From the IMG/VR virus record IMGVR_UViG_3300029705_000041: a DNA stretch of 64,000 bases. One strand, 5' to 3'. The translations under genes were made by a program, and so were the position numbers. The DNA comes from a virus. Its lineage: Duplodnaviria > Caudoviricetes. Each line of letters opens with the position of its first letter. Within the stretch, counting starts at the first letter, position 1. Positions 399 through 40,012 of this stretch are shown here, in pieces. Under the pieces are notes generated by a model. It worked only from the letters and a program-made list of their open reading frames with translations. It did not search any database and was not told where the DNA came from.

Positions 399-440
399 TT
401 CAGAAAAAGTATTGACAAATAAAATAAAGCGTGATATAAT
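394..440 (+). promoter_or_regulatory. sigma-A promoter with conserved upstream AATAATTCAGAAAAAGTA box
   Basis: TTGACA 412-417, 17-bp spacer, TG-n-TATAAT 435-440; upstream of tRNA cluster. Confidence 0.85.
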
Positions 441-1302: not shown

Positions 1303-1389
1303 TAGCTTATTAGGCTAGAATGCATCATCCTTCTATTAAAATTATAATGGGTATAAAAGTAAGATGCAAAAATTCCCTAAAGTAAGCTA
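1303..1389 (+). ncRNA. scaffold RNA unit 1 (Y-RNA-like candidate)
   Basis: TAGCTTA..TTAGG/CCTAA..TAAGCTA outer stem, TGCATC/GATGCA inner stem, CATCCTTCTA 1326-1335; starts right after tRNA-Arg CCA. Confidence 0.7.
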
Positions 1390-1400
1390 AAAAATTAAAA

Positions 1401-1487
1401 GGTGGCTAATTATAATCATCCTTCTATTTTAAGAGGTTCAATCCCTCTCTCTGAATTGGTTATTTATTAGATTATATAATATCCACC
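1401..1487 (+). ncRNA. scaffold RNA unit 2, carries tRNA T-arm
   Basis: GGTGG/CCACC and TATAATC/GATTATA stems, CATCCTTCTA; cargo AGAGG-TTCAATC-CCTCT plus AATTGGT D-loop-like remnant. Confidence 0.75.
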
Positions 1488-1495
1488 AATCTTAT

Positions 1496-1572
1496 TTAGG
1501 CTATGTGGCAGCTTCCTTCTATAAAAAACATACATGAAGAATATTAAAAGATAAGTTGCCACAATTTCCAAA
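1496..1572 (+). ncRNA. scaffold RNA unit 3
   Basis: GGCT, TGTGGCAGCT/AGTTGCCACA stem, TTCCTTCTA, AATTTCC; ends just before RBS of 1596 gene. Confidence 0.65.
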
Positions 1573-1595
1573 ACAAAGAAAAGGAGTATAAAGAA

Positions 1596-3818
1596 ATGTT
1601 TGAAGTAAATGAAATTTTGCTAAGAAGAAAGAATAAGGTAATTCTTGCTGAAGGTAATCGGGATTATGTAACAACCAAGACAGAAAAAGCAATGGTTGTA
1701 TCTATTGCAAAGAATATCGAGGCATATGGTTTTACTTTTTCGCCCGAAGTTTTAAACATTTTACTTACATTCACAAGAGATGAAATCGAAGCGTTTTATA
1801 AGGAATTAATTCCTAAGTTGAAAAAACTTGTTGGAGCAGATAAAGAGTATTATCCTATGTACCCTAATTTTCCGCAGCAAGTAATGGAAGCATCGGACAT
1901 TGAATTGTTCGTAAATGCAATACTTCATTATTTTACATTTGGTCAGTGGATGCCGGAGTATGAAAAAGATGAACGTTTACCACTGTTTGATAGTAATAAA
2001 ATGACTGTTTTATCTGTAGGAAATGCCTCTGATGTTATGGATATTCTTAGTAATTTGGTAAGCAGTAAAACATCGTTATCAGAACAGGACAAATGTGATG
2101 TTGAAACAATTATCAAAACATATCCTGAATATCACAAATATCTTCCGGATGAAATTCCTCTGAAGGAAAATGTAGCTTTAATAGGAAAGATAATTCTTGA
2201 AGAAGCTCCTATAAAGAAAGCAAGCTATATTCAAAAATATTATAAAACAGCAACAGATGTATTAAGACTTGTTACTTGTTTATCAGATGGAGATATAAGT
2301 TTGGCAACAAGAACAAAGTACAGAAGTTTAAAACGTGCTGAACGAAGAATGATAATGGATTTACTTGCTGGATGTGGTAACATTATCGAAGATTTATTTA
2401 GATACCATTATCAGTGGATTCGTGTCGGAGAAATCATTCATCCTTTTGAATATAAAGCTGCTAAATATAATAGCGTTAATGATGCATTTAAAATTCTTAG
2501 AGAAGATAATAAACCTTTGATGTTTGGTGGAAAGGTGCAAGCTGCAATTTTAGCAAAAGATATGAAAACAGCAGCAACCCTACTTAAAGAACGTCCAGGT
2601 GAATTTGCAAGACAGCTTGATAAAGTTATGAGAGATGCATCGGATAAGAATTATATTTTGAATTGCTTTAAAGCTGTAGCAAATGACATTTCTACTCCGG
2701 TTCTTCTTCAAGTAAGACAACATTTCCAGGGAAGAAATAATCAGAATCCAATCAGAGTATTTTTCCCAAAAGGAAATTTGGCAAGAGCAATAGTTATTCC
2801 AAATGAACTGGTTGAGATTGAAGATAGATATTGTAAGTCAATTGTACAAATCTGTGAAAATGCTCTTTTAGAAAATTATAAGAGTAAGGATTACATGGGT
2901 AAAGTATATATTGACAGTGAATTGAAAAATTATATTGTTCCATTCAATCAGAGAAGTGCAAGTAGTGCAAATAAAATCATAATCAGAGGTAGCCAGGTTC
3001 CTATTAAAGAGGACGCAACCGCTGTAAGAGGATTTATTTGGTGGACAAATATGGATAGCCATAGCTACGGTAGTAGAGTTGATATAGATTTATCTGCTGC
3101 AATTTATGATGAGAATTGGAATTATGTAAGTCATGTTTCTTATACAAATTTGAGAGATAAGAACTTACAAGCATTTCATTCCGGAGATATTACTGATGGT
3201 GGAAATGCTAATGGTAAAGGTGTTGCGGAATTTCTTGATGTAAATATAGATGCCGTAGCGAAAAGAGGAAGATATATTGTATATCAGGTTTATAGCTTTA
3301 CAGGGCAGAAGTTTTCTGATATGCCAAATTGTAGATTTGGTTGGATGGAACGTGAAGATGTTGCATCTGGAGAAATTTTTGAACCAAAAACTGTTGCTAT
3401 GAGTCTTGATGTTACTTCTGAAAGTACCGTGGCAATACCGGTAATATTCGATTGTAAAGAACGTAAGTTCATTTGGTGTGATATGAACCTTGGCATTAAT
3501 GATACAAGTAGAAGATGCAGAGGAAATAACCTGGAAAGTAATTTATCAGGTGTAACTGCAACTTGTTATGCTATGACACATTTAAACAAAGCAAATATTT
3601 ATGATTTGGTTAGATTAAATGTAGAAGCAAGAGGTTTAATTACAACCAATAGAAATGAGGCTGATATTATTTTTAGTAATGATACAACTATACCTGTAGA
3701 GGTAGTAGAAGTTGAAGATGAAATTACAAAAGAAAAGAAATTCGTTCAGCGTGAAAGAAATAATGTTCCGATTATAACTGCATATGATGCAGATTATTAT
3801 ATGGGACAGTTGCTATAA
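1596..3818 (+). CDS. large helical N-terminal region + C-terminal TerD-like domain protein (candidate TROVE/Ro-like RNA-binding protein)
   Basis: RBS AAGGAG; TerD-like motifs DIDLSA, HSGDITD, AEFLDV near C-terminus; TROVE-like assignment is inferred from context. Confidence 0.7.
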   Translation: MFEVNEILLRRKNKVILAEGNRDYVTTKTEKAMVVSIAKNIEAYGFTFSPEVLNILLTFTRDEIEAFYKELIPKLKKLVGADKEYYPMYPNFPQQVMEASDIELFVNAILHYFTFGQWMPEYEKDERLPLFDSNKMTVLSVGNASDVMDILSNLVSSKTSLSEQDKCDVETIIKTYPEYHKYLPDEIPLKENVALIGKIILEEAPIKKASYIQKYYKTATDVLRLVTCLSDGDISLATRTKYRSLKRAERRMIMDLLAGCGNIIEDLFRYHYQWIRVGEIIHPFEYKAAKYNSVNDAFKILREDNKPLMFGGKVQAAILAKDMKTAATLLKERPGEFARQLDKVMRDASDKNYILNCFKAVANDISTPVLLQVRQHFQGRNNQNPIRVFFPKGNLARAIVIPNELVEIEDRYCKSIVQICENALLENYKSKDYMGKVYIDSELKNYIVPFNQRSASSANKIIIRGSQVPIKEDATAVRGFIWWTNMDSHSYGSRVDIDLSAAIYDENWNYVSHVSYTNLRDKNLQAFHSGDITDGGNANGKGVAEFLDVNIDAVAKRGRYIVYQVYSFTGQKFSDMPNCRFGWMEREDVASGEIFEPKTVAMSLDVTSESTVAIPVIFDCKERKFIWCDMNLGINDTSRRCRGNNLESNLSGVTATCYAMTHLNKANIYDLVRLNVEARGLITTNRNEADIIFSNDTTIPVEVVEVEDEITKEKKFVQRERNNVPIITAYDADYYMGQLL

Positions 3819-3825
3819 AATATAT

Positions 3826-3904
3826 TTCGGCTGGGACTACTCATCCTTCTAAATGCTGCGTAGCATCAAACTTTTAATTTGACCAAGAGTAGAAAATATC
3901 CGAA
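3826..3904 (+). ncRNA. scaffold RNA unit 4, carries Lys(UUU) anticodon stem-loop
   Basis: TTCGG/CCGAA, CTACTC/GAGTAG, CATCCTTCTA; cargo TCAAA-CTTTTAA-TTTGA 3866-3882. Confidence 0.75.
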
Positions 3905-3921
3905 TATTAAAAAAATATAAA

Positions 3922-3968
3922 AATAATTCAGAAAAAGTATTGACAAATACAAAAAACTATGCTATAAT
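3922..3968 (+). promoter_or_regulatory. sigma-A promoter with conserved upstream box, upstream of units 5-7
   Basis: TTGACA 3940-3945, 17 bp, TG-c-TATAAT 3963-3968. Confidence 0.85.
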
Positions 3969-3984
3969 GTAATTACAGTAAAAG

Positions 3985-4065
3985 TTCGGCTGATAACACT
4001 CATCCTTCTAAGCCTTGAATAAGGAACATACTGCTAATATGATTAAAGAGTGTGAAATATCCGAA
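3985..4065 (+). ncRNA. scaffold RNA unit 5, carries Ser(GCU)-like anticodon stem-loop
   Basis: TTCGG/CCGAA, CACTC/GAGTG, CATCCTTCTA 4001-4010; cargo CATA-CTGCTAA-TATG 4027-4041. Confidence 0.75.
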
Positions 4066-4080
4066 TATTATAAAACCATA

Positions 4081-4209
4081 ATCGGCTAATAAGTTTCATC
4101 CTTCTACGTATTTTTAATCCTTGTGTTATGGGTTCGAGTCCCATCCATATCGGTGATATGGTAGCTCAACAGGTAGAGCAAAGGCAAGTTGGAAACTTAA
4201 ATATCCGAT
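4081..4209 (+). ncRNA. scaffold RNA unit 6 with circularly permuted tRNA-Lys-like domain (YrlA-like topology)
   Basis: ATCGG/CCGAT, TAAGTTTC/GAAACTTA; order TTTTAA-TCCTT, T arm ATGGG-TTCGAGT-CCCAT, acceptor CCATATC-ggt-GATATGG, D arm GCTC/GAGC, AAGG. Confidence 0.85.
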
Positions 4210-4238
4210 AAAAATAAAGCAGAAAAAGTATTGAACAA

Positions 4239-4382
4239 ATTTCGGCTGTAGGAATTCATCCTTCTAATATACATAATTCCAGGCTGCAAGTGTAGGTTCG
4301 ACTCCTGCTATCGTGCATATGTGCGATATAGCCAAACGGTAAGGCGGCAGCATATAAAAAAAGAATTCAAAATTTCCGAAAT
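4239..4382 (+). ncRNA. scaffold RNA unit 7 with circularly permuted tRNA-Gly-like domain
   Basis: ATTTCGG/CCGAAAT, GAATTC/GAATTC; TTCCAG-GCTGC, T arm GTAGG-TTCGACT-CCTGC, acceptor TATCGTGC-atat-GTGCGATA, D arm GCC/GGC, GCAGC. Confidence 0.85.
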
Positions 4383-4394
4383 GAGGTATAACAA

Positions 4395-5156
4395 ATGGCA
4401 AGAAAAATTAAAAACCAGTCAATTAACAAGACAGAAAAAGTATTTATAGAGAAATTTCAATCTTTATGTTATACAAGAAGTTCTTGGGAGGTTTGGGCTG
4501 ATTTTATAACAGCTACAGCTTGTGCAATCGCAAACTCTATTGACAAAGAATCAGAACAGTTTGAAAAAAGAGAAAAAGAATATGCTCAATGCATTGAAAG
4601 ACTTGGAGGTTTGCAAACTCCGGCAGAAATGCTTGGTATAATTACTATGGCTCTTGAAGAAAATCCGGAACAAGATTTCTTAGGTGGTTTATTTATGAAA
4701 CTTGAATTAGGAAATCATTGGAAAGGACAATTCTTTACACCATATTGTGTATGTAAAACCATGGCTGCTATTAATTCTTATGAGCTTGAAGAAACTATAC
4801 AAAATAAAGGCTGGGTTTCAGTAAATGATTGTGCTTGTGGTGCTGGAGCAACTTTGATAGCAATGGCAAACACCTTAAAAGAACATGAAGTTAATTATCA
4901 AAATCACGCCTTATTCGTGGCACAAGATATAGACAGAGTTGCAGGATTGATGTGTTACATTCAGTTGTCATTACTTGGATGTCCAGGATATGTTGTAATA
5001 GCCGATTCACTTACAAATCCGATTGTTGGAAGTGTTTTAAGACCGGCACAAAAAGAGAATCAAGAATTCTGGTTTACACCAATGTATGCATCAGATGTAT
5101 GGCACTACCGTAGATTATACAACATGATGGATTCAATACTATTTGGAAGGAATTAA
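4395..5156 (+). CDS. N-6 DNA methylase-like protein
   Basis: GQFFTPY and NDCACGAG (SAM-binding) motifs; no NPPY/F seen. Confidence 0.7.
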   Translation: MARKIKNQSINKTEKVFIEKFQSLCYTRSSWEVWADFITATACAIANSIDKESEQFEKREKEYAQCIERLGGLQTPAEMLGIITMALEENPEQDFLGGLFMKLELGNHWKGQFFTPYCVCKTMAAINSYELEETIQNKGWVSVNDCACGAGATLIAMANTLKEHEVNYQNHALFVAQDIDRVAGLMCYIQLSLLGCPGYVVIADSLTNPIVGSVLRPAQKENQEFWFTPMYASDVWHYRRLYNMMDSILFGRN

Positions 5157-5908: not shown

Positions 5909-5912
5909 GAAT

Positions 5913-6404
5913 TGTTGCAGATGCGAATATAGGCGGTACTTAATTCATAGGCATTCAGTGCATATATCGTTAGCACACTCCGTGGGAACTGCTCCTATAG
6001 CTGATGGTTCCTTGCAACATCTACACGAATAAGAAGAAGCAAACTCTCTGCTAATGGTGAAATGATATATCTGTTAGCCGTACTAATACGTATTAGGTAT
6101 TTGTGTAGCGTTATAATCCTACCAACACGTTAGATTGGGGCAAGTATAATAGCGGATTAATATAGATAATGATTTGTAGCATAATGGATTTAGCAATTTA
6201 TTGTATTGGTGGCAAATATTATACATTTGTTGTCGGCTACACGGCGATAATCAATACGATAATGAGCGACAGTTTTTATTACCGGTTAAAGTTTTTGAAT
6301 TTGAGGTGAGGCATAATAATTTTGTGGAGTGGCTATGTAGACCAACTAGCAGTGTCTAAGCATAGAGTAGGATTTGATTGCTTTAGCCGGAATAAAAATT
6401 GCTT
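5913..6404 (+). ncRNA. candidate large structured ncRNA
   Basis: No plausible gene; nested helices such as CAGTTTTTATT-CCGGTTAAAG / CTTTAGCCGG-AATAAAAATTG and TTATTGTATTG/CAATACGATAA. Confidence 0.5.
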
Positions 6405-6408
6405 ATAT

Positions 6409-25219: not shown

Positions 25220-26425
25220 ATGAATAAAGTTGATATTAAAATTGTTATAGGTAGTAATTATGGAGATGAAGGAAAGGGTCTAGCCACTCATTATTTTTCT
25301 CAAAATGCTAAAAGAGAATGTAAAAAATGCTTAAACGTAATGTTTAACGGTGGTTGTCAAAGAGGGCATACTGTTGAATTAAAGAATAACACAAGACACG
25401 TTTTCCATCATTTTGGTTCAGGAACTTATGATTCTGCTCATACATATTTTGATAGTAACTTTATGGTGAATCCGATATTTTTTATAAAAGAATATGTAGA
25501 ACTTTACAATTCGGGAATAAATCCAACTTGTTTTATATCTCCGGATTGTAGAGTTTCTACACCATATGATATGCTTATAAACCAGGTTGTTGAGAGAGAA
25601 AGAAATAAAAACAAACATGGTTCTTGTGGATTTGGCATATATGAAACACAGCAGAGATATAAAAATAGTAAATATAATTTAACATTTTCTCAAATGGTTA
25701 ATTGCACAAATGAAGAATTAAAAACATATTTAACCAATATCGCAAATGATTATGTATATAAAAGAATTAAAGAATATAACATAAAGTGTGTTTCAAATGA
25801 AATTAAGCTTATATTAAATTCTGAAATATTAATAACAAACTTTATTAATGATTTCAGAGAAATGGTTTCTATTGTTCATCAGAAGCAATTTGAAGAATTA
25901 ATGCATAGTTATAATGTTATTATTTTTGAAGGTGCGCAAGGTTTAGAGTTAGATGAGGATAATATTAAAGGATTACCACATTTAACACCTAGCAAAACTA
26001 CTTCGCAGCTACCTTTAAAAAGAGTTCAGAATTTACAAAATAAAAACATTGAAGTGTGTTATATTACAAGGTCATATTTCACGAGACATGGTGCCGGTAA
26101 ATTTCCTACAGAATGCAATAAAAGTTGTATTAATAATTGCATTGAAGATATAACAAATGTAAACAATGAATTCCAAGAATCTATACGATATGGATTGTTT
26201 GACAAAATAGAATTTGCAAACAGAATTACCACTGATACAAGTATATCAAAACAAATATATACGGACTATACAACATCAGTATTTGTTACGCATCTTAATT
26301 ACACTAATGGAGATTTAGCAGGAAATTGTACTTTGAATGATATAATAAATATGTTCGATAAAGCATATCTTTCTGATTCTAAATATTCGGAAGATGTGAA
26401 AATGGAGGAAAACAAATGGCGATAA
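25220..26425 (+). CDS. adenylosuccinate synthetase-like protein (divergent PurA)
   Basis: GDEGKG, GHTV, GSCGFG, FEGAQG, TRHGAG. Confidence 0.8.
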   Translation: MNKVDIKIVIGSNYGDEGKGLATHYFSQNAKRECKKCLNVMFNGGCQRGHTVELKNNTRHVFHHFGSGTYDSAHTYFDSNFMVNPIFFIKEYVELYNSGINPTCFISPDCRVSTPYDMLINQVVERERNKNKHGSCGFGIYETQQRYKNSKYNLTFSQMVNCTNEELKTYLTNIANDYVYKRIKEYNIKCVSNEIKLILNSEILITNFINDFREMVSIVHQKQFEELMHSYNVIIFEGAQGLELDEDNIKGLPHLTPSKTTSQLPLKRVQNLQNKNIEVCYITRSYFTRHGAGKFPTECNKSCINNCIEDITNVNNEFQESIRYGLFDKIEFANRITTDTSISKQIYTDYTTSVFVTHLNYTNGDLAGNCTLNDIINMFDKAYLSDSKYSEDVKMEENKWR

Positions 26426-27195
26426 TAGGTTCGATAATAGGTGATATTATCGGTTCTCAATATGAATTCAAATTACCAGACAATTTTAATCCGAAAAATG
26501 CAGAACTTTTTTCTGATAAATGTAGATTTACCGATGACACTGTAATGAGTTTAGCTACAAAATATGCAATTATTAATAATAAATCATTTGCAGAATCATA
26601 TCAATTGTTTGGACGTAAATATGAAGAAGTAGGATATGGTGGATTTTTCAGAGCTTGGATTTTTGAAGATAATCCACTTCCATACGGAAGTTTTGGAAAT
26701 GGTTCAGCTATGAGAGTTTCTTATGTTGCAGACCATTTTAAAAGCCAAAAAGCTGTTATTGAATACGCACGAAAATCAGCAGAATGCACACATAATCATG
26801 CTGAAGGTATAAAAGGTGCAGTAGCAACCGCAATGTGTATATGGATGGCTAAAAAAGGATATACAAAAGCTGATATATATGATTATGCTATAAAGCAATA
26901 TCCGGCAACTGATTATATGTACAGTCCTGAATATAGTATTGATTCCATCAAAGAAAAATACAAATGGAGTGATACTTGTCAAGATAGTGTTCCTGTAGCG
27001 ATAAGATGTGTCCTTGAAGCAGATAATTATATTGAATTTATAAGAAATGTATTTAAACTAAAATGTGATATGGACACGATATGTGCTATCGGCGGAGGAA
27101 TAGCAGAGGAACTGTTTGGTACAACAGGACTTGATAATGATGCTGTTTTAAAACAATATTTAACAGAAGATTTATATAAACTTTGTATGAATTAA
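26416..27195 (+). CDS. ADP-ribosylglycohydrolase
   Basis: GDIIGS, FTDDT, GNGSAMR, DMDT. Confidence 0.9.
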   Translation: MAIIGSIIGDIIGSQYEFKLPDNFNPKNAELFSDKCRFTDDTVMSLATKYAIINNKSFAESYQLFGRKYEEVGYGGFFRAWIFEDNPLPYGSFGNGSAMRVSYVADHFKSQKAVIEYARKSAECTHNHAEGIKGAVATAMCIWMAKKGYTKADIYDYAIKQYPATDYMYSPEYSIDSIKEKYKWSDTCQDSVPVAIRCVLEADNYIEFIRNVFKLKCDMDTICAIGGGIAEELFGTTGLDNDAVLKQYLTEDLYKLCMN

Positions 27196-30424: not shown

Positions 30425-31459
30425 ATGGAGGAAAACATGAATATTGTACAAATTAACGAAGCAATTAAAGCTCCTGAATATGATTTTTTGAGAAATGATA
30501 AGAACCTAGGAGAAAATATTATTTTGCTAGGATTAGGTGGTAGTCATGCATATGGAACAGAGAATGAACACAGTGACCTTGATATTAGGGGGATAGCAAC
30601 AAATAGCAAACGCAACATTTTAATAAGAAAAGATTTTGAACAAGTAGTAGAACGAGAGACCGATACTACTATATATTCATTTGAAAAGATAGTTAAATTG
30701 TTATGCGAATGCAATCCGAATACAATTGAAATTTTAGGATTGAAACCGGAACATTATTTATATTTGTCACCCATCGGAAAAGAGTTACTTAAAAATAAAC
30801 ATCTTTTTCTATCAAAAAGAGCAATTCATTCATTTGGTGGTTATGCTAATTCTCAATTGAGAAGAATGGAGAATAAGTCAGCCAGATTAGTAGACCAAAC
30901 TAAGATGGAAGAAAATATCTTAAAAAGTATTCAACACGCAGATGTGGATTTCCGCAATAAGTATTTTGATATGCCGGAAGATAGCATAAAATTATATGTG
31001 GATGCATCTAACCAAGAAGAATATGATTCTGAAATATTTATGGATGTTACATTAAAACATTATCCATTAAGAGATTATAGTGCAATGTGGTCTGAAATGA
31101 ACAATATTGTTAAAGCATATTCAAAATTTGGAAAAAGAAATCAAAATGCAGTTGAGCATAATAAACTTGCAAAACATATGATGCATTTGGTTAGATTATA
31201 TCTTATGTGTTTTGATATATTAGAAAATGGTGAAATTGTTACTTATAGAGAAAAAGAGCATGATTTTCTAATGTCTATCCGAGCTGGCAAATATCTAGAT
31301 GAGCAGCGCCAACCAACTCCGGAATTTTATAAAATAGTAGATGAATTAGAAAAGAAACTAGAATTATTAAGTGCAAAAACAGACTTGCCGGAAAAAGTTG
31401 ATATGAGAAAGATTAATGATTTTGTTATGAGTGTGAACGAAAAAATTTGCATGAGATAA
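30425..31459 (+). CDS. Pol-beta superfamily nucleotidyltransferase
   Basis: GGSHAYG, SDLDIRG, NPNTIE, KHMMHLVRL. Confidence 0.85.
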   Translation: MEENMNIVQINEAIKAPEYDFLRNDKNLGENIILLGLGGSHAYGTENEHSDLDIRGIATNSKRNILIRKDFEQVVERETDTTIYSFEKIVKLLCECNPNTIEILGLKPEHYLYLSPIGKELLKNKHLFLSKRAIHSFGGYANSQLRRMENKSARLVDQTKMEENILKSIQHADVDFRNKYFDMPEDSIKLYVDASNQEEYDSEIFMDVTLKHYPLRDYSAMWSEMNNIVKAYSKFGKRNQNAVEHNKLAKHMMHLVRLYLMCFDILENGEIVTYREKEHDFLMSIRAGKYLDEQRQPTPEFYKIVDELEKKLELLSAKTDLPEKVDMRKINDFVMSVNEKICMR

Positions 31460-31481
31460 ACAGATAGGAGAGTGAATGTAA

Positions 31482-32426
31482 ATGGAAAGAAATGAAATTA
31501 TGAATTCTATTGCTCTGAAAAAAAGGTTTTGCAAAGATTGTAATTTGCCAATTACTGTTTTTGATAATCCGTATTTTCACGAAAGATTATGTACATTAGA
31601 CATAATGTTTGAATGTGTTGATAAATTTGAAGATTTTTGCGAAGAATTAAAAAGATTTAATAATGAGCAGGAATATTTTGAATTTTATAATGGAGTAAAG
31701 GATGCCGTTATTGATTATATTAAAAACAACGATAGTTACATAAAGTTTTCAAATGAGGAATTTAAAATTGAAACAGAATATAATAAACGAAATCTATATG
31801 TAGAAGAAAATGATGATAGAACATTTATTTCTTTAGATATGAAAAAAGCCAACTTTTCAGCATTGCATTATTATTCTCCGGAAATTTTCAGAAACTGTTC
31901 GACCTGGGAAGATTTCATGCAAACTTTTACAGATTGCAAACATATTATCGAAAGCAAATATATTCGTCAAGTAATCATGGGAGCTTGCAATCCTAAAAGA
32001 CAAATTCAGTACGAAAGATATTTGATGAATGAACTTATTAAAGAACTTGCTAATAATATTCCAACCTTGTATGTATTCAGTCTTGGAGAAGATGAAATAA
32101 TTTTACATACAGAAGATTGCGGGTATTGTTTAAGTAAGTTTTACGAAGTGTTAGAAAACCATCCGCTCGGAAAATATATCAGATTAACCATGTTTGATTT
32201 ATATAAAATTAAAGGCACTGATGGTTGGATGAAATACATATATAATTTTGATGCAGATTCTGATGTTGATGACAAAGTGGAATTCAAATGTTTAAATGCA
32301 GAAATATTCCACCAAATTATTAAACATTATTATAATGAGGTGATAACACCAAATGATTTGGTTTTTTATCACAATGGAGAACTTGCTGCATATTTAAAGG
32401 AAGTGGATAATCCATGGAAATCATAA
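31482..32426 (+). CDS. hypothetical phage protein
   Basis: 314-aa ORF, SLDMKKANF motif. Confidence 0.7.
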   Translation: MERNEIMNSIALKKRFCKDCNLPITVFDNPYFHERLCTLDIMFECVDKFEDFCEELKRFNNEQEYFEFYNGVKDAVIDYIKNNDSYIKFSNEEFKIETEYNKRNLYVEENDDRTFISLDMKKANFSALHYYSPEIFRNCSTWEDFMQTFTDCKHIIESKYIRQVIMGACNPKRQIQYERYLMNELIKELANNIPTLYVFSLGEDEIILHTEDCGYCLSKFYEVLENHPLGKYIRLTMFDLYKIKGTDGWMKYIYNFDADSDVDDKVEFKCLNAEIFHQIIKHYYNEVITPNDLVFYHNGELAAYLKEVDNPWKS

Positions 32427-33664
32427 AATTACCAGAATCGGTTCAATACATACTTAGTCGGCTCAATAAAAACAATTATGAAGCATATGTGGTGGGTGGA
32501 TGTGTAAGAGATAGTTTAATGAAAAGAATACCGCATGATTGGGATATTTGCACATCCGCTCTGCCGGAGCAAGTAATGGAAATATTTAACGAACATCAGA
32601 TAATTCCTACAGGTTTAAAGCATGGTACGGTCACAATAGTAATTGACAAGGAACCGTTTGAAGTAACAACATATCGAATTGATGGTGAATATGAAGATAA
32701 TAGACATCCCAAAAATGTTGTTTATACTAAAAGTTTGCATGAAGATTTAATGCGTAGAGATTTTACAATAAATGCACTGGCTTACAATCCAACTGAAGGT
32801 ATAATAGATATTGTTGGCGGAATTAAGGACATTAAAAATAAGACAATAAGATGTGTTGGTAATTCAGGAGAACGTTTTAGAGAAGATGCTTTACGTATGT
32901 TAAGAGCTATTCGTTTTGCGGCAAGGTACTCTTTTAGAATTCATCATAAAACCATATTCTCTATTCTTGCAAATAAAGAGTTGTTAAAGAATATATCAAT
33001 AGAAAGAATAAACTCTGAAATAATGAAAACATTATCAAGTAATTATGTTAATTCACGAATTTACTATTTACTTGCAACTTGTGTAAAACAAATTATTCCG
33101 GAACTTGATAATACTAATGTGGTGAATACTAGTTATAAAGTGGAAAGGTCTCCGGCTGATATTTATGTTAGACTGGCTTTATTATTTAATTTTGACCAAG
33201 AAAAATTGTTGGAAGTTTTAAAACAATTAAGGTTTGATAACGATACTATCAAAAAAGTTTGTAGTGTATCTAAGTTAGGTAAATATATTTGTTTTGAAAC
33301 TGCTGCCCCATTTAATATTGAGATACATCAAGAAAACCTATACAAATACCTTGCAAGGATTCTTATTAAAGAATTAGGTAATAAAATGGCAATTTCATCT
33401 ATTCATTTCGCAGCACTTTTGCAAGAATATAAATATAACGATATTATTCGTCTTATAGATTTTGTAAATACTGAAATTGAAAATAATTCATGTTGTAGTA
33501 TTGCACAAATGCAAATAGATGGCAATGATTTAGTTAATATAGGTTTTTGTGGAATAGAAGTAGGGAAATGTTTAAATACTTTGCTTGAAGAAATTATGCA
33601 AGACAAATTAGAAAACAACAGAGAATGTCTATTAAAAAGAGCAGAAGAATTGAGGAACTTATGA
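32414..33664 (+). CDS. cca: CCA-adding tRNA nucleotidyltransferase
   Basis: VGGCVRD, DWD, EVTTYR, RRDFTINA, EDALRMLRA. Confidence 0.9.
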   Translation: MEIIKLPESVQYILSRLNKNNYEAYVVGGCVRDSLMKRIPHDWDICTSALPEQVMEIFNEHQIIPTGLKHGTVTIVIDKEPFEVTTYRIDGEYEDNRHPKNVVYTKSLHEDLMRRDFTINALAYNPTEGIIDIVGGIKDIKNKTIRCVGNSGERFREDALRMLRAIRFAARYSFRIHHKTIFSILANKELLKNISIERINSEIMKTLSSNYVNSRIYYLLATCVKQIIPELDNTNVVNTSYKVERSPADIYVRLALLFNFDQEKLLEVLKQLRFDNDTIKKVCSVSKLGKYICFETAAPFNIEIHQENLYKYLARILIKELGNKMAISSIHFAALLQEYKYNDIIRLIDFVNTEIENNSCCSIAQMQIDGNDLVNIGFCGIEVGKCLNTLLEEIMQDKLENNRECLLKRAEELRNL

Positions 33665-33987
33665 TTTATGAATGTAAAAAGTGTGGTCAAACAGAGGTAT
33701 TTATAAAGCAAGTTGGAAATCAAACCGGATTATATTGTTTAAAATGCAGTGCCTGGATAAAATGGCTAACAAAAGCAGAAATCAAAAAAGTATATGAACA
33801 TATTAAAGAGCAATATAATGACAAAAATGTTTCGATAAGAACATTTATAAAAAAGAATGGTACTACAATAATAAGATGTTCTGAATGCGGATGTCAGCTT
33901 TATAATTCAAATACTCCACGACCACAAGGGCAATTTGACTTAATCGGTGCAAAATATTGTCCTCAATGTGGAAAAGAATTAATATAA
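33661..33987 (+). CDS. zinc-finger protein
   Basis: Four CxxC pairs. Confidence 0.65.
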   Translation: MIYECKKCGQTEVFIKQVGNQTGLYCLKCSAWIKWLTKAEIKKVYEHIKEQYNDKNVSIRTFIKKNGTTIIRCSECGCQLYNSNTPRPQGQFDLIGAKYCPQCGKELI

Positions 33988-34005
33988 GAAAGGAAAAATG
34001 AAAAT

Positions 34006-34548
34006 ATGAATGGTGCATTAGTGGTAAACCTTTTTGGTGTCCCTGGAGCCGGCAAAAGTACCGGAGCTGCATACATATTCTACAAACTAAAAGTAAATGG
34101 AATTAATGCTGAACTGGTAACAGAATTTGCAAAAGATAAAGTATGGGAAGAAAGTAATGAAGTTTTCAAAAATCAATCTTATATTTTTGGAAAACAATCC
34201 TTCAGAATGACGAGATGTGCAGATAAGGTTGATGTTATCATTACAGATAGTCCTCTACCTTTATCTATATTATATAACAACGATAAGCGATTAACCGAAA
34301 ATTTTAATAAATCGGTAATGGATGTATTCAATTCTTATGATAACGTTAATTATTTACTGATTAGAACAAAACCATATAATCCTTCAGGAAGAATACAGAC
34401 AGAAGAAGAATCTAATGCTCTCGGAGAGCCAATAAAGAAATTACTTTCAGATAGAAATATCGAATATAAGGTTGTAAATGGAGAGTGTAGTGGATATGAA
34501 AAAATAGTAGATGAAGTTCTACAAATTATGAAAAAAAGAAAAAAATAA
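34006..34548 (+). CDS. P-loop kinase (AAA_28/NadR-like)
   Basis: GVPGAGKST, ITDSP, GRIQ. Confidence 0.8.
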   Translation: MNGALVVNLFGVPGAGKSTGAAYIFYKLKVNGINAELVTEFAKDKVWEESNEVFKNQSYIFGKQSFRMTRCADKVDVIITDSPLPLSILYNNDKRLTENFNKSVMDVFNSYDNVNYLLIRTKPYNPSGRIQTEEESNALGEPIKKLLSDRNIEYKVVNGECSGYEKIVDEVLQIMKKRKK

Positions 34549-34559
34549 ATTTTTTAAAA

Positions 34560-34606
34560 AATAATTCAGAAAAAGTATTGACAAACAAAAGGAAGTGTGG
34601 TATAAT
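34560..34606 (+). promoter_or_regulatory. sigma-A promoter with conserved upstream box
   Basis: TTGACA 34578-83, 17 bp, TG-g-TATAAT 34601-06. Confidence 0.85.
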
Positions 34607-34637
34607 AAATTCAAGAATTAAATAAGGAGTGTTCAAA

Positions 34638-34832
34638 ATGCTATGCAGACATTGTAAAAAACAAATGAAACACGTATTAAGATTTGATAAAAATAAAATA
34701 TATGAATTCTATCGTTGTTCTAGATGTTATGCTGAAAGTAAAAAGCTGCCTTATTATTTTAAACAAGAAATAAGACAGAAAAAGTATAAAAAGATGAACA
34801 CTAAAACTGATAGCAGAGGTAAAAGGGAATGA
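34638..34832 (+). CDS. small zinc-ribbon protein
   Basis: CRHC...CSRC. Confidence 0.55.
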   Translation: MLCRHCKKQMKHVLRFDKNKIYEFYRCSRCYAESKKLPYYFKQEIRQKKYKKMNTKTDSRGKRE

Positions 34833-35500
34833 GTAAGAAAAGAGCTTTTACAGGATTAACTTTTAATTATGTCATTGACCAAGTGTTATTGAAAGCTAAA
34901 TTCAAAACAATAGAAGAATTTCTGGAGACTATTTTTCCAAAGAACAATAATCCTAAATCGCCAAATGATAATAGCGAAATATCAAACATTCGTTGGAAAA
35001 AATATCACATTGATACACGTGATAGTGTTAAAACGGTTGCTGATTTAAAGATTCTTTTAATTAATGAACCGGATGTGATAAATCCACCAAAGAAACCACC
35101 TAAAACTTTGCAGCTAATTCGCAAACAAAAATATTCTATTGAAGAAGTTAAAGAGACTGTAAAAGATGTTTTGTTTGAAACAGATGATAAAAAGGCACGA
35201 ATAGAATTTGACGGTGATTATATTAAAGGTAATAGTCAAAGATACCAAACATTCTTTACTGATGGAGTTAAATGTTCTTGTTGCGGTATAGAGGGTAAGT
35301 TCTTTGCAAAAGAAAGACATTCAACTTCAAAATGCTATCATTTAAACTTATATGCCGTTGATGATAATGGCATAGAAATCCTTATGACAAAAGACCACAT
35401 TATTCCAAAATCCAAGGGTGGGAAAAACCATTTGAGCAATTATCAAACAATGTGTTCAGTGTGTAACTCCCTTAAAGGAAATAGAATGGAGAATGAATAA
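34829..35500 (+). CDS. HNH endonuclease
   Basis: CSCC...TKDHIIPKSKGGKNHLSNYQTMCSVCN. Confidence 0.85.
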   Translation: MSKKRAFTGLTFNYVIDQVLLKAKFKTIEEFLETIFPKNNNPKSPNDNSEISNIRWKKYHIDTRDSVKTVADLKILLINEPDVINPPKKPPKTLQLIRKQKYSIEEVKETVKDVLFETDDKKARIEFDGDYIKGNSQRYQTFFTDGVKCSCCGIEGKFFAKERHSTSKCYHLNLYAVDDNGIEILMTKDHIIPKSKGGKNHLSNYQTMCSVCNSLKGNRMENE

Positions 35501-36813
35501 TGTATTGTGCTTATATAACAACAATTCGTGAACTAAGGAAACATAGTAATGCAGATAGATTGCAGTGTGCAACGATTTTTGGCAATAACGTCATAGTTGA
35601 TATGACATATAAATCGGGGGACAGAGTAATTTATTTTCCTGTTGACGGTCAACTTGGAAAAGAATTTGCAGATGATAATAATTTAGTTCGTAAAAAAGAT
35701 GCTGAAGGAAATAATATTGGTGGTTATTTAGACCCTAATAAAAGAAATATTACAGCTTTAAAATTACGTGGTGAACAATCAGATGGTTTAGTTTTGCCGA
35801 TAACTGTTTTAAGTAAATACATCAATGTAGACACTTTGACAGATGGAGAGCAAATAACAGTATTAAATGGATATGAAATTTGTAAAAAATACATTCCGGT
35901 TGGAAAACCACGTTCACATACATATACAACAAGTAAAACAAGAAAAAATAAAAAGGAAGAAAAACAAAAAATTACATATCCGTTTTTTGTAGAACACATA
36001 GACACTGCGCAACTTGCGTATAATCAGTCTGCATTTAAACCAGGAGATACTTGCTACATTACACTTAAAATGCATGGAACATCTGCTAGAACTATGAATG
36101 CAGTTGAGGTTACAAAAAGAAAAGCAAATCCGATTGCAAAAAAAGTTTTTAAAGTTAAAGACAAAGAAACAAGGCAATATAAGTGCGTAAGTGGAACAAG
36201 AAGAACCACGTTAAAAAATTATGATGGTGGTTGGTATGGTAGCAATGCATTTAGAGAAAAGTATCATGAATTCTTTAAAGAAAGACTCCCAAAAGGCGCA
36301 GAAATATTCTACGAAATTGTTGGCTGGATAAACGAAGATACAACAATAATGGGTAGATGTTCTAACAAGCTAATAAAAGATAAAGAATTTAGTAAGCAAT
36401 ATGGTGACGAAACTATTTTCTCTTATGGTTGCAATATTGGCGAAAGTGATTGTTATGTTTACAGAATGACACTAACAAATGAAGATGGCTTTGCCGTTGA
36501 GATTCCTTGGGAACAAGTATTGATAGAATGTGAAAAAATGGGAGTTAAATGTGTTCCTACATTTGAAAAATTCACATTTACAACTTGGGAAGATTTAATG
36601 GAAAGAGTTGAGAAATATTATGACGGTGCTGACCCTGTAGGCAAAAGTCATGTAAGAGAAGGTGTCGTTGTAAGAATTGATAACAGACCGAGTTTTACTG
36701 CTTATAAACATAAGAATTTCAGTTTCAAATGTTTAGAGGGAATTATCAAAGATACATCCGATGCTCCGGATATAGAAGAAGCAGAAGAACTCATTATAGA
36801 TGAAGTAATTTAA
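35500..36813 (+). CDS. RNA ligase (DRB0094/Rnl2-like)
   Basis: N-terminal HSNADRL OB-like region, KMHGTS motif I, YEIVG, EGVV, YKHK. Confidence 0.85.
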   Translation: MYCAYITTIRELRKHSNADRLQCATIFGNNVIVDMTYKSGDRVIYFPVDGQLGKEFADDNNLVRKKDAEGNNIGGYLDPNKRNITALKLRGEQSDGLVLPITVLSKYINVDTLTDGEQITVLNGYEICKKYIPVGKPRSHTYTTSKTRKNKKEEKQKITYPFFVEHIDTAQLAYNQSAFKPGDTCYITLKMHGTSARTMNAVEVTKRKANPIAKKVFKVKDKETRQYKCVSGTRRTTLKNYDGGWYGSNAFREKYHEFFKERLPKGAEIFYEIVGWINEDTTIMGRCSNKLIKDKEFSKQYGDETIFSYGCNIGESDCYVYRMTLTNEDGFAVEIPWEQVLIECEKMGVKCVPTFEKFTFTTWEDLMERVEKYYDGADPVGKSHVREGVVVRIDNRPSFTAYKHKNFSFKCLEGIIKDTSDAPDIEEAEELIIDEVI

Positions 36814-37417: not shown

Positions 37418-40012
37418 ATGAGAGGTTTAACAAAAAACGAGGTACTTGATAGCAGACGAAGATACGGAAGCAATAAGTTACCAGAACCAAAACAGAAGAA
37501 ATGGTATGATTTCGCAAAAGAAGCATTAAGCGAAAAAATTACACTTATCTTAATTGCAATTGCAGCACTTCAACTTGTCCTTGCATTTGTTGGAGTTATG
37601 GAATGCTCTGAACCGATTATGATTATGTTGGTGTTAGGTATTGTAACTAGCATTGCAATCAGAACAGGATTAGGTGTTCAGAAGTCAGCAACAGAATTAA
37701 GAATGAAAACCGCTGTGCGATATTGTGATGTTATACGAGATGGCGAAGTGCAGACAATAAATAAAGATGAAATTGTTGTCGGAGATATTGTTTGTATAGG
37801 AATGGGTCAAGAGATTTTTGCTGATGGCTACATTATCGAAGGTAAGGTAAGTGTTAATAATGCAGCTATTAATGGTGAAACAAAAGAATGCAGAAAAACA
37901 CCGGTTGAAAATTATGTACATCAGAAAACAACTTCAACAGATGCATATACAAACCAAAACTGTCTTTTTGCCGGAACAAGCATTATGTCTGGCGAAGGAA
38001 AAATGATTGTTACAGATGTTGGTGTTAATACAGTGAACGGTGATACTCTTGTAAAAATGCAGACACTTGAAGCACCAAAAACAGCTCTTGATATAGCTCT
38101 TGACAATTTAAGTGAGTTCATTTCAAAGTGGGGAACCATTGCCGCAGTTATTACATTCTTTGTTCTAACAATTTCCGGAATGCTTGAAGTTGGTATGGCA
38201 AAATACTTTACAGGTAATATCTTGAATATTGTTCAGAAACTTGCTTCAAACTTTTCTGTTGCATTAACAATTATTGTTGCAGCAGTGCCGGAAGGATTAC
38301 CACTAATTGTAAAACTAGTAACAAAGCAGAATGTAAAAACTATGGAGAAGTCGAATATTTTGGCGAAAAATCCTGGTAAAATTCCTGAACTTGCTTATGT
38401 AAATCTGATTTGTACAGATAAAACAGGTACTCTTACTACAGGCATTATGTCTCCAAGAACAATTGTAGATTATTCAGGAAATGAAGTTCAGAGAGATACT
38501 GCTCTATTTGCAGAACTAAAGAAGAATATTGTATTGAATAACAGTGCAGTATTTGATTCGGATAATAAGATTACAGGCGGTAACTCTATTGACAGAGCTG
38601 TACTATCATTGGTTTTGCCCGCAGAAGCAAAAGATATTTCTGCTGATAATACATTGCTTGATAAGCAAGTATTTAACAGTATTAATAAATATTCTGCGTT
38701 TACAACCAGTGATAAGATTACATATTATAAGGGCGCTCCAGAAAAGATTATCGAATCTTGTGCTACAGCAATGTTAGCTGATGGAACGGTAGTTGATTTC
38801 AATGATAAGGAAGTGCTTAACAATAAGATTAAAGAGTTTACAACTAATTCCATTAGATGTATTGCTTTAGCGGTAGCTAATGAATGTTTGGTTGAAAATG
38901 AACTTCCTACAAATATGACACTTTTAGGAATCATAGGCGTTGTTGACCCGATTAGACCGGAAGTGCCAGAAGCAGTAAGAGTTGCAAACAAAGCAGGAAT
39001 CCAAGTAATTGAAATTACCGGTGACTGTATTGAAACAGCAATTGCAGTTGCAAAAGAATGCGGTATTTACAAAGATGGCGATATTGCTCTTACAAATGAA
39101 AAATTTGAAAAAATGAGTGATGAAGAAGTAAAAGCAATAATTCCTGGATTAAGAGTTATTTCAAGATGTTCACCTAATACGAAATTAAGACTTGTTACTT
39201 TGGCACAAGAAATTGGAATGTCTGTAGCAATGACAGGTGATGGAGTTAATGACTCTCCGGCATTAAAGAGAGCCGATGTAGGTTTTGGTATGCAGAGCGG
39301 CAGTGATGTCGCAAAAGAAGCATCAGACATCATTCTTACAGATGATAACTTTGCATCTGTTGTGAAAGCTGTTGAACTCGGAAGAACATTTATGCACAAT
39401 ATCATGATGTTCCTCGAATTCCAGTTACCAATAAATATATCGTTACTTATTTTGAGTATGGTTTATCCTATGTTTGCTGCCGGTTCAATTTTGGCATCAG
39501 TTCAGATTCTTATTGTAAATATTATCATGGATTCCTTAAATTCATTGTCATTCGGTGGAGAACCACCTAAAGATGAATATATGGATGAAAAACCGATTAA
39601 AAAGGGTTCAGGATTATTTATTCGTGGTGCAAAAGGTAAAATTGCAGTAAGCACTATTACATTTATTCTTGCTTATGCAATTCTGATATTTGCTATTCCT
39701 GATAAGTTTTTTGCAAATGAAACAAGTGCTTTGACAGCTCGATTTGCGTTGCTTTGTTTCATGGCAACATTGAATGGTTTTAATATTAGAACCGAACATA
39801 TTAATTTGTTTACAGGATTAAATAAAAATAAATTGTTTGTAAAGATTGCAATTGGTATTTTTGTAGGAGTAATTCTTACTTGTACTTTTGCAGGAAATCT
39901 TGTAAAGGTTTGTCCATTAGATATTACACAGTGGATTATAATTATGGTCTTATCATTAATTGTAATTCCTGTTGATAGTATAAGAAAAATTATAACAAAT
40001 AAAAGGAGATAA
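37418..40012 (+). CDS. P-type (Ca2+-translocating-like) ATPase
   Basis: VPEGL, DKTGT, KGAPE, TGD, GDGVND; TGES replaced by NGET. Confidence 0.92.
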   Translation: MRGLTKNEVLDSRRRYGSNKLPEPKQKKWYDFAKEALSEKITLILIAIAALQLVLAFVGVMECSEPIMIMLVLGIVTSIAIRTGLGVQKSATELRMKTAVRYCDVIRDGEVQTINKDEIVVGDIVCIGMGQEIFADGYIIEGKVSVNNAAINGETKECRKTPVENYVHQKTTSTDAYTNQNCLFAGTSIMSGEGKMIVTDVGVNTVNGDTLVKMQTLEAPKTALDIALDNLSEFISKWGTIAAVITFFVLTISGMLEVGMAKYFTGNILNIVQKLASNFSVALTIIVAAVPEGLPLIVKLVTKQNVKTMEKSNILAKNPGKIPELAYVNLICTDKTGTLTTGIMSPRTIVDYSGNEVQRDTALFAELKKNIVLNNSAVFDSDNKITGGNSIDRAVLSLVLPAEAKDISADNTLLDKQVFNSINKYSAFTTSDKITYYKGAPEKIIESCATAMLADGTVVDFNDKEVLNNKIKEFTTNSIRCIALAVANECLVENELPTNMTLLGIIGVVDPIRPEVPEAVRVANKAGIQVIEITGDCIETAIAVAKECGIYKDGDIALTNEKFEKMSDEEVKAIIPGLRVISRCSPNTKLRLVTLAQEIGMSVAMTGDGVNDSPALKRADVGFGMQSGSDVAKEASDIILTDDNFASVVKAVELGRTFMHNIMMFLEFQLPINISLLILSMVYPMFAAGSILASVQILIVNIIMDSLNSLSFGGEPPKDEYMDEKPIKKGSGLFIRGAKGKIAVSTITFILAYAILIFAIPDKFFANETSALTARFALLCFMATLNGFNIRTEHINLFTGLNKNKLFVKIAIGIFVGVILTCTFAGNLVKVCPLDITQWIIIMVLSLIVIPVDSIRKIITNKRR

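Follow-up and report, generated by a model that had tools for sequence, protein, structure and literature searches.

An array of tRNA-mimic RNAs around the gene of a helical-TerD protein in a phage of the gut/rumen Clostridia type

The locus and its RNA scaffold

The DNA analysed here (the window) is a stretch of 64,000 nucleotides (nt) of the virus record IMGVR_UViG_3300029705_000041 (Duplodnaviria; Caudoviricetes). Its source is a large, low-GC phage of the gut/rumen Clostridia type, to which IMG/VR contigs of 128-161 kb and contigs from Ruminococcus, Coprococcus and Lachnospiraceae bins are closely related. Our subject is an array of seven related RNA units at positions 1303-4382, flanking a gene (1596-3818) for a protein of 740 amino acids (aa). 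All genes in the window lie on the + strand, and the units are embedded in a tRNA cluster: over the first 7 kb, Rfam calls eleven tRNAs and ARAGORN ten. An initial annotation, made from the sequence alone, had described the seven units as sharing one architecture, with inner stems that differ in sequence and stay paired, and had likened units and protein to the Ro/Y-RNA system. In the list below, unit coordinates and bit scores are those of a covariance model (R1, described further on); the coordinates agree with the earlier ones within a few bases.

412-440, + strand: promoter-like site TTGACA-17-TGnTATAAT, 12/12 (a consensus match only), ahead of the tRNA cluster, units 1-3 and the gene
1227-1302, + strand: tRNA-Arg(ACG) with encoded CCA, last tRNA of the upstream cluster; unit 1 begins at the next base
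1307-1383, + strand: unit 1, small hairpin cargo with an AUGGG loop and no clear tRNA part (59.6 bits; fold z -2.6)
1398-1490, + strand: unit 2, cargo with the T-arm hairpin AGAGG-UUCAAUC-CCUCU (55.5 bits)
1493-1575, + strand: unit 3, UUCCUUCUA variant with a weak outer stem (62.3 bits)
1596-3818, + strand: gene of the 740-aa protein, helical N-domain plus TerD
3823-3907, + strand: unit 4, hairpin plus the anticodon-type arm UCAAA-CUUUUAA-UUUGA, a Lys UUU loop (58 bits)
3940-3968, + strand: second perfect promoter-like site (a consensus match only); unit 5 starts ~14 nt past its -10 box
3982-4068, + strand: unit 5, CCUU-GAAU-AAGG hairpin plus CAUA-CUGCUAA-UAUG, a Ser GCU-type loop (62.8 bits)
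4078-4212, + strand: unit 6, circularly permuted tRNA with T arm, 7-bp acceptor stem closed by a 3-nt loop, and D arm (49.6 bits; an ARAGORN cloverleaf once rotated)
4238-4383, + strand: unit 7, second circularly permuted tRNA with a UCC/Gly-like anticodon remnant (44.3 bits; folds into an ARAGORN cloverleaf once rotated)

The sequence TCCTTCTA occurs seven times in the window, always on the + strand and always within 1328-4266, against a chance expectation of 2.6; the longer pattern GGCT-N(3-14)-WTCCTTCTA is also found seven times, against 0.02 expected. The common frame of all seven units is GGCU-N10-(A/U)UCCUUCUA-cargo-N9-AUUU-CC. On the 5' side, an outer stem ending in GG is followed by CU, by 10 nt (one unpaired nucleotide and a nine-position helix) and by (A/U)UCCUUCUA; a cargo of 27-96 nt comes next; on the 3' side, the nine-position helix is followed by AUUU (AUAU in four of the window units), by CC and by 2-5 more outer pairs. 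This architecture was parsed from 147 units, namely the seven of the window and 140 copies at related loci, in which the spacer from GGCU to the motif is exactly 10 nt (9 nt in a few). The scaffold is more regular than first described: once the apparent 6-bp inner stems are extended through A/G mismatches at three outer positions, both the length of the inner helix and the spacing of the invariant elements become constant.

The units are a true RNA family in which both stems covary strongly. In an alignment of 38 short units, 86.9% of the cells are paired, compared with 37-45% when the partners are slid, and the covariation score of 0.72 (0.12-0.15 when slid) was reached by none of 500 shuffles. 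Among 104 distinct units from 28 sources, in an alignment fitted to the model, 88.3% are paired with a covariation score of 0.78. Changes on both sides are seen at seven or eight of the nine inner pairs, the only fixed pairs being GG/CC and the C-G pair adjoining the motif. The covariance model R1, built from the alignment of 38 short units, returned exactly the seven units of the window at 44-63 bits, with none elsewhere in the 64 kb. Both the shared architecture and the covariation of the initial annotation were thereby borne out.

The motif AUCCUUCUA finds no better pairing with its own cargo (best pairing of 4.21 nt) than with shuffled cargos (4.11 nt), so it is probably single-stranded. 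An antisense role was considered and rejected, as the perfect complement TAGAAGGA is not present on the coding strand of the window. We also noticed that the motif resembles, bar one U, the 16S rRNA 3' tail of a likely host lineage (Ruminococcus sp. YE282: ...CACCUCCUUUCUA), as compared at window 1327-1335 and equivalent positions and at 1700-1722 of the related locus L052. The likeness may be accidental or may mark an anti-Shine-Dalgarno-like element; Xanthomonas and actinobacterial phages retain the motif as well. GGGAU is enriched in the cargos (15% vs 2%), mostly inside one related cargo class.

Because promoter-like sites stand ahead of the blocks, unit 1 abuts the CCA of a tRNA and neighboring units are only 5-15 nt apart, the arrangement suggests polycistronic transcripts cut by the tRNA-processing machinery, in which the unit ends would be joined by the outer stem as in Y RNAs. 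In eight relatives the first unit adjoins a tRNA-Lys(UUU) gene, just as unit 1 adjoins tRNA-Arg here. Unit 3 ends ~20 nt ahead of the start codon and hence sits in the 5' leader of the gene, a position conserved in relatives together with the UUCCUUCUA variant, and unit 4 begins 5 nt past the stop codon. A 23-nt element, ATTCAGAAAAAGTATTGACAAAT, recurs complete at window 400-440 and 3926-3968, each time with a perfect TG-extended -10 box; a third copy, AGCAGAAAAAGTATTGAACAAAT, lies at 4215-4236 just before unit 7, without a clear -10.

The tRNA-like cargos and linkage of the units to the gene

Five of the seven window cargos are tRNA parts, as the initial annotation had it: a T arm (unit 2), a Lys-type arm (unit 4), a Ser-type arm (unit 5) and permuted tRNAs (units 6 and 7), leaving units 1 and 3 with no recognizable tRNA part. 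Over all units, the cargo classes are permuted tRNAs of YrlA topology, anticodon arms (Lys-UUU, Ser, Cys and Pro-like) and T arms. When rotated at the acceptor-closing loop, 24 of 25 long cargos become cloverleaves accepted by ARAGORN, which calls none of them unrotated. In 42 of 95 short cargos, compared with 11% of shuffles, a stem of 5 bp closes a 7-nt loop whose second position is U and whose sixth is a purine, with UUUGGGA, CUUUUAA (Lys), CUGCAAA (Cys) and CUGCUAA and CUUGAAA (both Ser) as recurrent loops; six cargos carry a T arm. About 40% of the distinct cargos hold nothing nameable. There are 120 distinct cargos among the 147 units, and the cargo set varies between close relatives, whereas the scaffold does not. 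In the window, the Rfam tRNA model also gives an 18-bit match at 4155-4313 that joins a 5' half in unit 6 to a 3' half in unit 7 across 103 nt, which is probably chance.

The proposed likeness to YrlA stands for the topology and fails for the Ro-binding part. Unit 6 aligns to Rfam YrlA (RF02553) at 40.2 bits, below the gathering score of 69, over model positions 23-85 of 114, in the order anticodon-stem strand, T arm, closed acceptor hairpin, D arm and anticodon-stem strand; the Ro-binding stem of the model is unmatched, and the other six window units give no match to it. The permuted tRNA-like domain of the YrlA type is confined in the window to units 6 and 7 and absent from units 1-5, and in relatives it is present in those 24 of 25 long cargos. 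Apart from this sub-threshold match, the units show no overlap with Rfam 15 families, even at a limit of E<=10. The Ro-binding motif of Y RNA and YrlA is GNCGAA(N)G / CGAA near the 5' end (PMC4201824, PMC12135203). The seven units lack CGAA throughout, and their 5' strands consist of GGCU and an A/G-rich linker.

The initial annotation had staked its proposal on the units being linked to homologous genes in other genomes, and the linkage is very strong. R1 units lie beside the homologous gene, on the gene's strand, at 38 of 39 metagenomic or genomic loci: all 13 IMG/VR loci (90 units) and, among genomes and viral contigs, 25 of another 26, where protein identity falls as low as 32-40%. The linked units are all on the strand of the gene and nearly all within a few hundred bases of it; even a 989-aa variant of the protein, from a metagenome of 50% GC, has two units just upstream. 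More distant homologues (23-34% identity) are encoded by cultured phages of Rhodococcus (Weasels2), Xanthomonas (XacN1, Xoo-sp13), Mycobacterium (WXIN) and Lactobacillus (LpeD), as well as by Salicola, Ruegeria and Rhodobacter phages, and Campylobacter phages have homologues by fold. In Weasels2, XacN1, WXIN and LpeD, each gene is flanked by an unannotated gap of 240-650 nt; the orthologues are gp266 of Weasels2, ORF396 of XacN1 and orf166 of LpeD. When R1 was run without filters on these four phages, the best matches in the gaps, on the gene's strand, were weaker than in close relatives: 32.1, 21.1 and 16.4 bits in XacN1, 26.7 and 16.0 bits in LpeD, 18.6 and 10.7 bits plus a sub-threshold YrlA match in Weasels2, and 10.5 bits in WXIN. 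In their alignments the build is unchanged and some letters vary (GGCC for GGCU; UUCCUUCUA or UUACUUCUA), and one XacN1 cargo again carries a CUUUUAA loop. The linkage extends, through these weaker matches, to homologues in phages of four bacterial groups.

The count of seven holds for this phage, but not for its relatives, which carry 1 to 9 units, some of them at a distant second site. Five near-complete relatives have 38 units between them, 32 flanking the gene and six at the second site, one or two at a time, always between a 290-aa open reading frame of no family and a second tRNA cluster, after which come a beta-CASP/RMMBL RNase (480-490 aa) and ClpP. No homologue of these second-site genes (the 290-aa frame, the beta-CASP RNase and ClpP) was found in the window. 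The second-site units (loci L053-L056) are as follows.

G001 150453-150656: second-site units
G002 108663-108785: second-site units
G003 91496-91575: second-site units
G005 78665-78887: second-site units

The 740-aa protein and other genes of the window

The AlphaFold2 model of the 740-aa protein, obtained with a 56-sequence alignment (predicted local distance difference test 89.7, predicted template modeling score 0.86), is composed of a helical N-domain (~1-450), a TerD beta-sandwich (~470-660) and a small C-terminal alpha/beta part, in agreement with the two-domain protein proposed initially. The TerD fold is assigned with confidence from this model. Pfam TerD (PF02342) stays below threshold for the window protein, and the relatives P0225 and P0213 score 17-20 bits, the cut-off being 25.3. 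TerD proteins form a tellurite-resistance/Ca2+-binding beta-sandwich family (PDB 3ibz, 2kxt, 2qz7); they are stand-alone proteins of ~190 aa encoded in the ter operon, whereas here the fold is part of a 740-aa protein beside RNAs. We know of no RNA partner of a TerD protein.

Among 48,161 solved chains, the best structural matches of the N-domain are two Ro60 orthologues, at modest Z. Foldseek gives phiLo Ro60 a probability of 1.00, but a template modeling score of 0.39, and in BFVD the first named match outside the protein's own family, at rank 7, is a phage TROVE protein. It is notable that three structure libraries, searched with a predicted model, converge on the single family to which the RNA had already pointed, and a Ro60-like fold of the N-domain is moderately supported by the modeling. 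The fold scores are modest, and the tool itself cautions that a shared arrangement of helical repeats is enough for such Z values. Several observations weigh against membership in the Ro60 family. No Pfam match was obtained for the protein at E<=0.1, including to TROVE (PF05731), and a profile search against PDB sequences revealed no Ro60 sequence homology. Alignment of the family profile to a TROVE profile with hhalign gave a probability of 0.14, the TROVE profile being a narrow one of Bxz1 Ro relatives at >=55% identity. Finally, TerD stands where Ro60 has vWA/MIDAS, and the C-terminal part is not a vWA domain. By sequence, the protein is not a TROVE family member, given the missing Pfam match and the hhalign result. 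A canonical TROVE gene was likewise not found, by six-frame search with PF05731, in nine phages with the module (the five relatives, Weasels2, XacN1, LpeD and WXIN), the control Bxz1 scoring 78 bits.

The protein matches NCBIfam NF041916 (MXAN_6230/SCO0854 RING family) at 415 bits over profile positions 163-754 of 842, with an equivalog cut-off of 600; judged from these profile scores, the protein is a true homologue of that family and not an equivalog. Since the match begins at position 163, the RING part is absent from the phage protein, and the score implies that the cellular relatives (mainly Actinomycetota and Myxococcota) fuse a prokaryotic RING (Prok-RING_4, N-terminal) to the same helical plus TerD body, a build shared by fold neighbors in the ESM Atlas. 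A search for RING-fused cellular relatives in 121 genomes of one phylum returned the seed genome only. The family of the 740-aa protein counts 2,974 clusters at 50% identity (E<=0.001), all unnamed or labeled "TerD family protein", and occurs in phages of Clostridia, lactobacilli, actinobacteria, Campylobacter and proteobacteria; a search for related proteins longer than 1,296 aa found none, and PADLOC gave no match to the 740-aa protein.

Downstream of the array, the product of 4395-5156 (253 aa) contains part of an N6-adenine methyltransferase domain (PF02384, phrog_5696) and might be an RNA or DNA methyltransferase. It was rejected as a core part of the module, as it follows the array at 7 of 43 related loci, in close relatives only. 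Within the tRNA cluster, an Rfam tRNA call at 1049-1122 (45.6 bits) is absent from the ARAGORN output and the tRNA-Gln at 572-644 scores just 33.6 bits, and both may be aberrant. Between tRNA-Leu(UAA) and tRNA-Pro, ~500 nt (5909-6408) hold no long open reading frame and no Rfam match even at E<=10. In a related phage, the tRNA cluster upstream of the module contains a gene resembling transfer-messenger RNA by ARAGORN (L012 463-862). The window also contains an RNA-repair-type gene cluster (30425-36813), with two further genes near it.

26416-27195: ADP-ribosylglycohydrolase, near the RNA-repair cluster
30425-31459: RlaP (PF10127)
32414-33664: CCA-adding enzyme
35500-36813: Rnl-type RNA ligase with a PHA02142 OB domain
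37418-40012: P-type cation ATPase, near the RNA-repair cluster

A proposed Ro60-like particle and the alternatives

The nearest known system is that of Ro60 (Rsr) with Y RNA or YrlA, examples being Salmonella rsr-yrlBA, mycobacteriophage Bxz1 Ro and Thermus phage phiLo Ro60 with Yrl1/Yrl2, in which Y RNAs tether Ro60 to PNPase. The two have much in common: a large helical protein encoded beside small RNAs with paired 5' and 3' ends, as at our 38 of 39 loci and, by weaker matches, in the four cultured phages; an identical permuted tRNA-like domain (T arm, closed acceptor hairpin, D arm) in some of the RNAs; a divalent-cation-binding domain after the helical domain; and occurrence in large phages rich in tRNA and RNA-repair genes. 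They differ in that the phage protein lacks the TROVE signature, with a TerD beta-sandwich in place of vWA/MIDAS, that GGCU...AUCCUUCUA...AUUUCC replaces GNCGAA/CGAA, and that up to nine RNAs are present per genome rather than the 1-2 of known systems. Isolated anticodon arms and T arms are found among the cargos here only; to our knowledge, Y RNAs do not carry them. The Ro likeness is best read as analogy or remote homology, the principle of a helical protein with adjacent small RNAs bearing a tRNA-like domain being known and the parts and the modular multi-cargo array being new.

With moderate confidence, we favor a phage ribonucleoprotein (RNP) built like the Ro60/Y-RNA particle from different parts, whose RNAs would act as tRNA-part decoys or adaptors. 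The 740-aa protein, with its Ro60-like helical domain and TerD cation-binding domain, would bind the RNA family through the shared scaffold, recognizing the closing stem with its invariant GG/CC, the CUA/AUUU internal loop and the single-stranded (A/U)UCCUUCUA, and leaving the nine-position helix between these elements free in sequence. The interchangeable cargo would project as a tRNA look-alike, be it a YrlA-like permuted tRNA body, an anticodon arm or a T arm. The RNAs would be transcribed with the phage tRNA cluster, probably being excised from its transcripts, and the particle would present tRNA mimics to tRNA-recognizing proteins. Host anticodon nucleases and other tRNA-directed defenses, titrated or tethered, are the favored candidate targets, and a platform for the phage's own tRNA repair enzymes is a possible alternative role. 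By analogy with Y RNA-Ro60-PNPase, each cargo may tether or titrate the protein that recognizes that tRNA part. Decoy, degradation adaptor and repair platform are three candidate roles. A phage-host conflict over tRNA integrity is suggested by the prominence of Lys(UUU), the fast turnover of cargos, the position in the tRNA cluster and the genes for RlaP, CCA-adding enzyme and RNA ligase.

The proposal is close to known phage tRNA counter-defense (T5 tRNA-Lys against PARIS, T5 tRNA-Tyr against retron Eco7), which likewise uses tRNA-shaped RNAs from tRNA clusters and is aimed at host anticodon nucleases, as proposed here, where the Lys(UUU) loop is prominent. However, the T5 RNAs are complete, functional, cleavage-resistant replacements of host tRNAs, whereas those described here are non-decoding fragments or permuted bodies on a putative protein-binding scaffold. 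AcrIIIA1, an anti-CRISPR that binds t(m)RNA fragments, was rejected as a relative, being an unrelated protein of 10 kDa. In the literature that we searched, we found no description of the scaffold, of an RNA link of the protein family or of a Ro-like plus TerD protein, although phage structured-RNA catalogues (PMC10690425) may hold the motif unnamed.

Among the alternatives, we regard it as unlikely that the RNAs act alone, as free decoys or sponges or as stability or processing cassettes recognized by host or phage RNases, next to a protein that is co-regulated and physically unrelated, for example in TerD-type stress or signaling. The units far from the gene, beside the second tRNA cluster and the beta-CASP RNase gene, speak for this possibility, as does a 740-aa protein without a known RNA-binding family; moreover, the first unit abuts a tRNA 3' end, so that unit ends are probably set by tRNA-processing enzymes. 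Yet in phages of Firmicutes, Actinobacteria and Proteobacteria, gene and RNA stay adjacent even where the proteins share just 23-34% identity, which points to a direct functional tie and is otherwise hard to explain. The invariant loop and the 9-nt single strand look like a protein-recognition site, and the best fold matches of the N-domain are RNA-binding Ro60 rings.

We judge it improbable that the units are cis-acting elements of the mRNA of the 740-aa gene, with unit 3 as a leader operator, units past the stop codon as stabilizers and extra copies as by-products. The conserved placement and UUCCUUCUA variant of unit 3 in the 5' leader, the start of unit 4 directly after the stop codon and the ability of UCCUU to pair with AAGGA-type ribosome-binding sites would all fit such elements. 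Against this, genomes hold up to nine units, several of them behind their own promoter-like site or at the distant locus, and units so far from the gene indicate that the RNAs are not merely its cis-elements; a cis-operator has no need of tRNA-like cargos, and the coding strand of the window contains no perfect complement of the motif. Autoregulation through unit 3 would be compatible with the RNP that we favor, and no substitute for it.

Still less credible, in our opinion, is that the long units are circularly permuted tRNA genes matured into working tRNAs, with the protein as processing factor. In its favor, red and green algae have permuted tRNA genes, the rotated long cargos form cloverleaves in 24 of 25 cases, and genes for an RNA ligase and a CCA-adding enzyme are present in the phage. 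Maturation would have to remove the scaffold, ligate the anticodon loop, open the acceptor loop and add CCA, but the acceptor stems are closed by 3-6-nt loops without discriminator-CCA, 10-20 extra nt separate the scaffold from the anticodon remnant, and no splicing endonuclease was seen. Most units carry just an arm or no tRNA part, and the topology matches YrlA, an RNA that does not mature into a tRNA (PMC4201824). A selfish or neutral repeat (MITE/REP-like: miniature inverted-repeat transposable element or repetitive extragenic palindrome) spread within the tRNA region, which multiple copies of a short element bounded by inverted repeats might suggest, hardly merits belief and is effectively refuted by the covariation of the stems and the synteny across phyla, the loop motifs also being invariant, the orientation always following local transcription, copies being absent elsewhere in the window and the same element standing beside the same gene in unrelated phage lineages.

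Returning to the favored RNP, a broader claim is put forward tentatively, as possible and rather doubtful: that it represents an unrecognized, widespread class in which a Ro-like/TerD protein loads exchangeable RNAs displaying tRNA parts, one bait per host enzyme, amounting to an RNA-programmed counter-defense independent of Ro60 in origin. The cultured phages with the module (Weasels2, XacN1, LpeD and WXIN) put experiments within reach, LpeD with L. plantarum and Weasels2 with R. erythropolis being tractable pairs of phage and host. The compact scaffold sets a 9-bp helix of free sequence between two short invariant motifs and accepts inserts of 12-140 nt, and so appears to be a natural RNA display cassette of possible practical use. 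If the protein binds the units, it would be a second, sequence-unrelated solution to the Ro/Y-RNA design, and the long-unexplained tRNA mimicry of bacterial Y RNAs would gain a testable purpose, as mimicry split into swappable pieces (anticodon arm, T arm, tRNA body) would allow targets to be fished out singly. It would also add an RNA-based mechanism to the phage answers against tRNA-cleaving defenses. The protein family is large and present in phages of very different bacteria.

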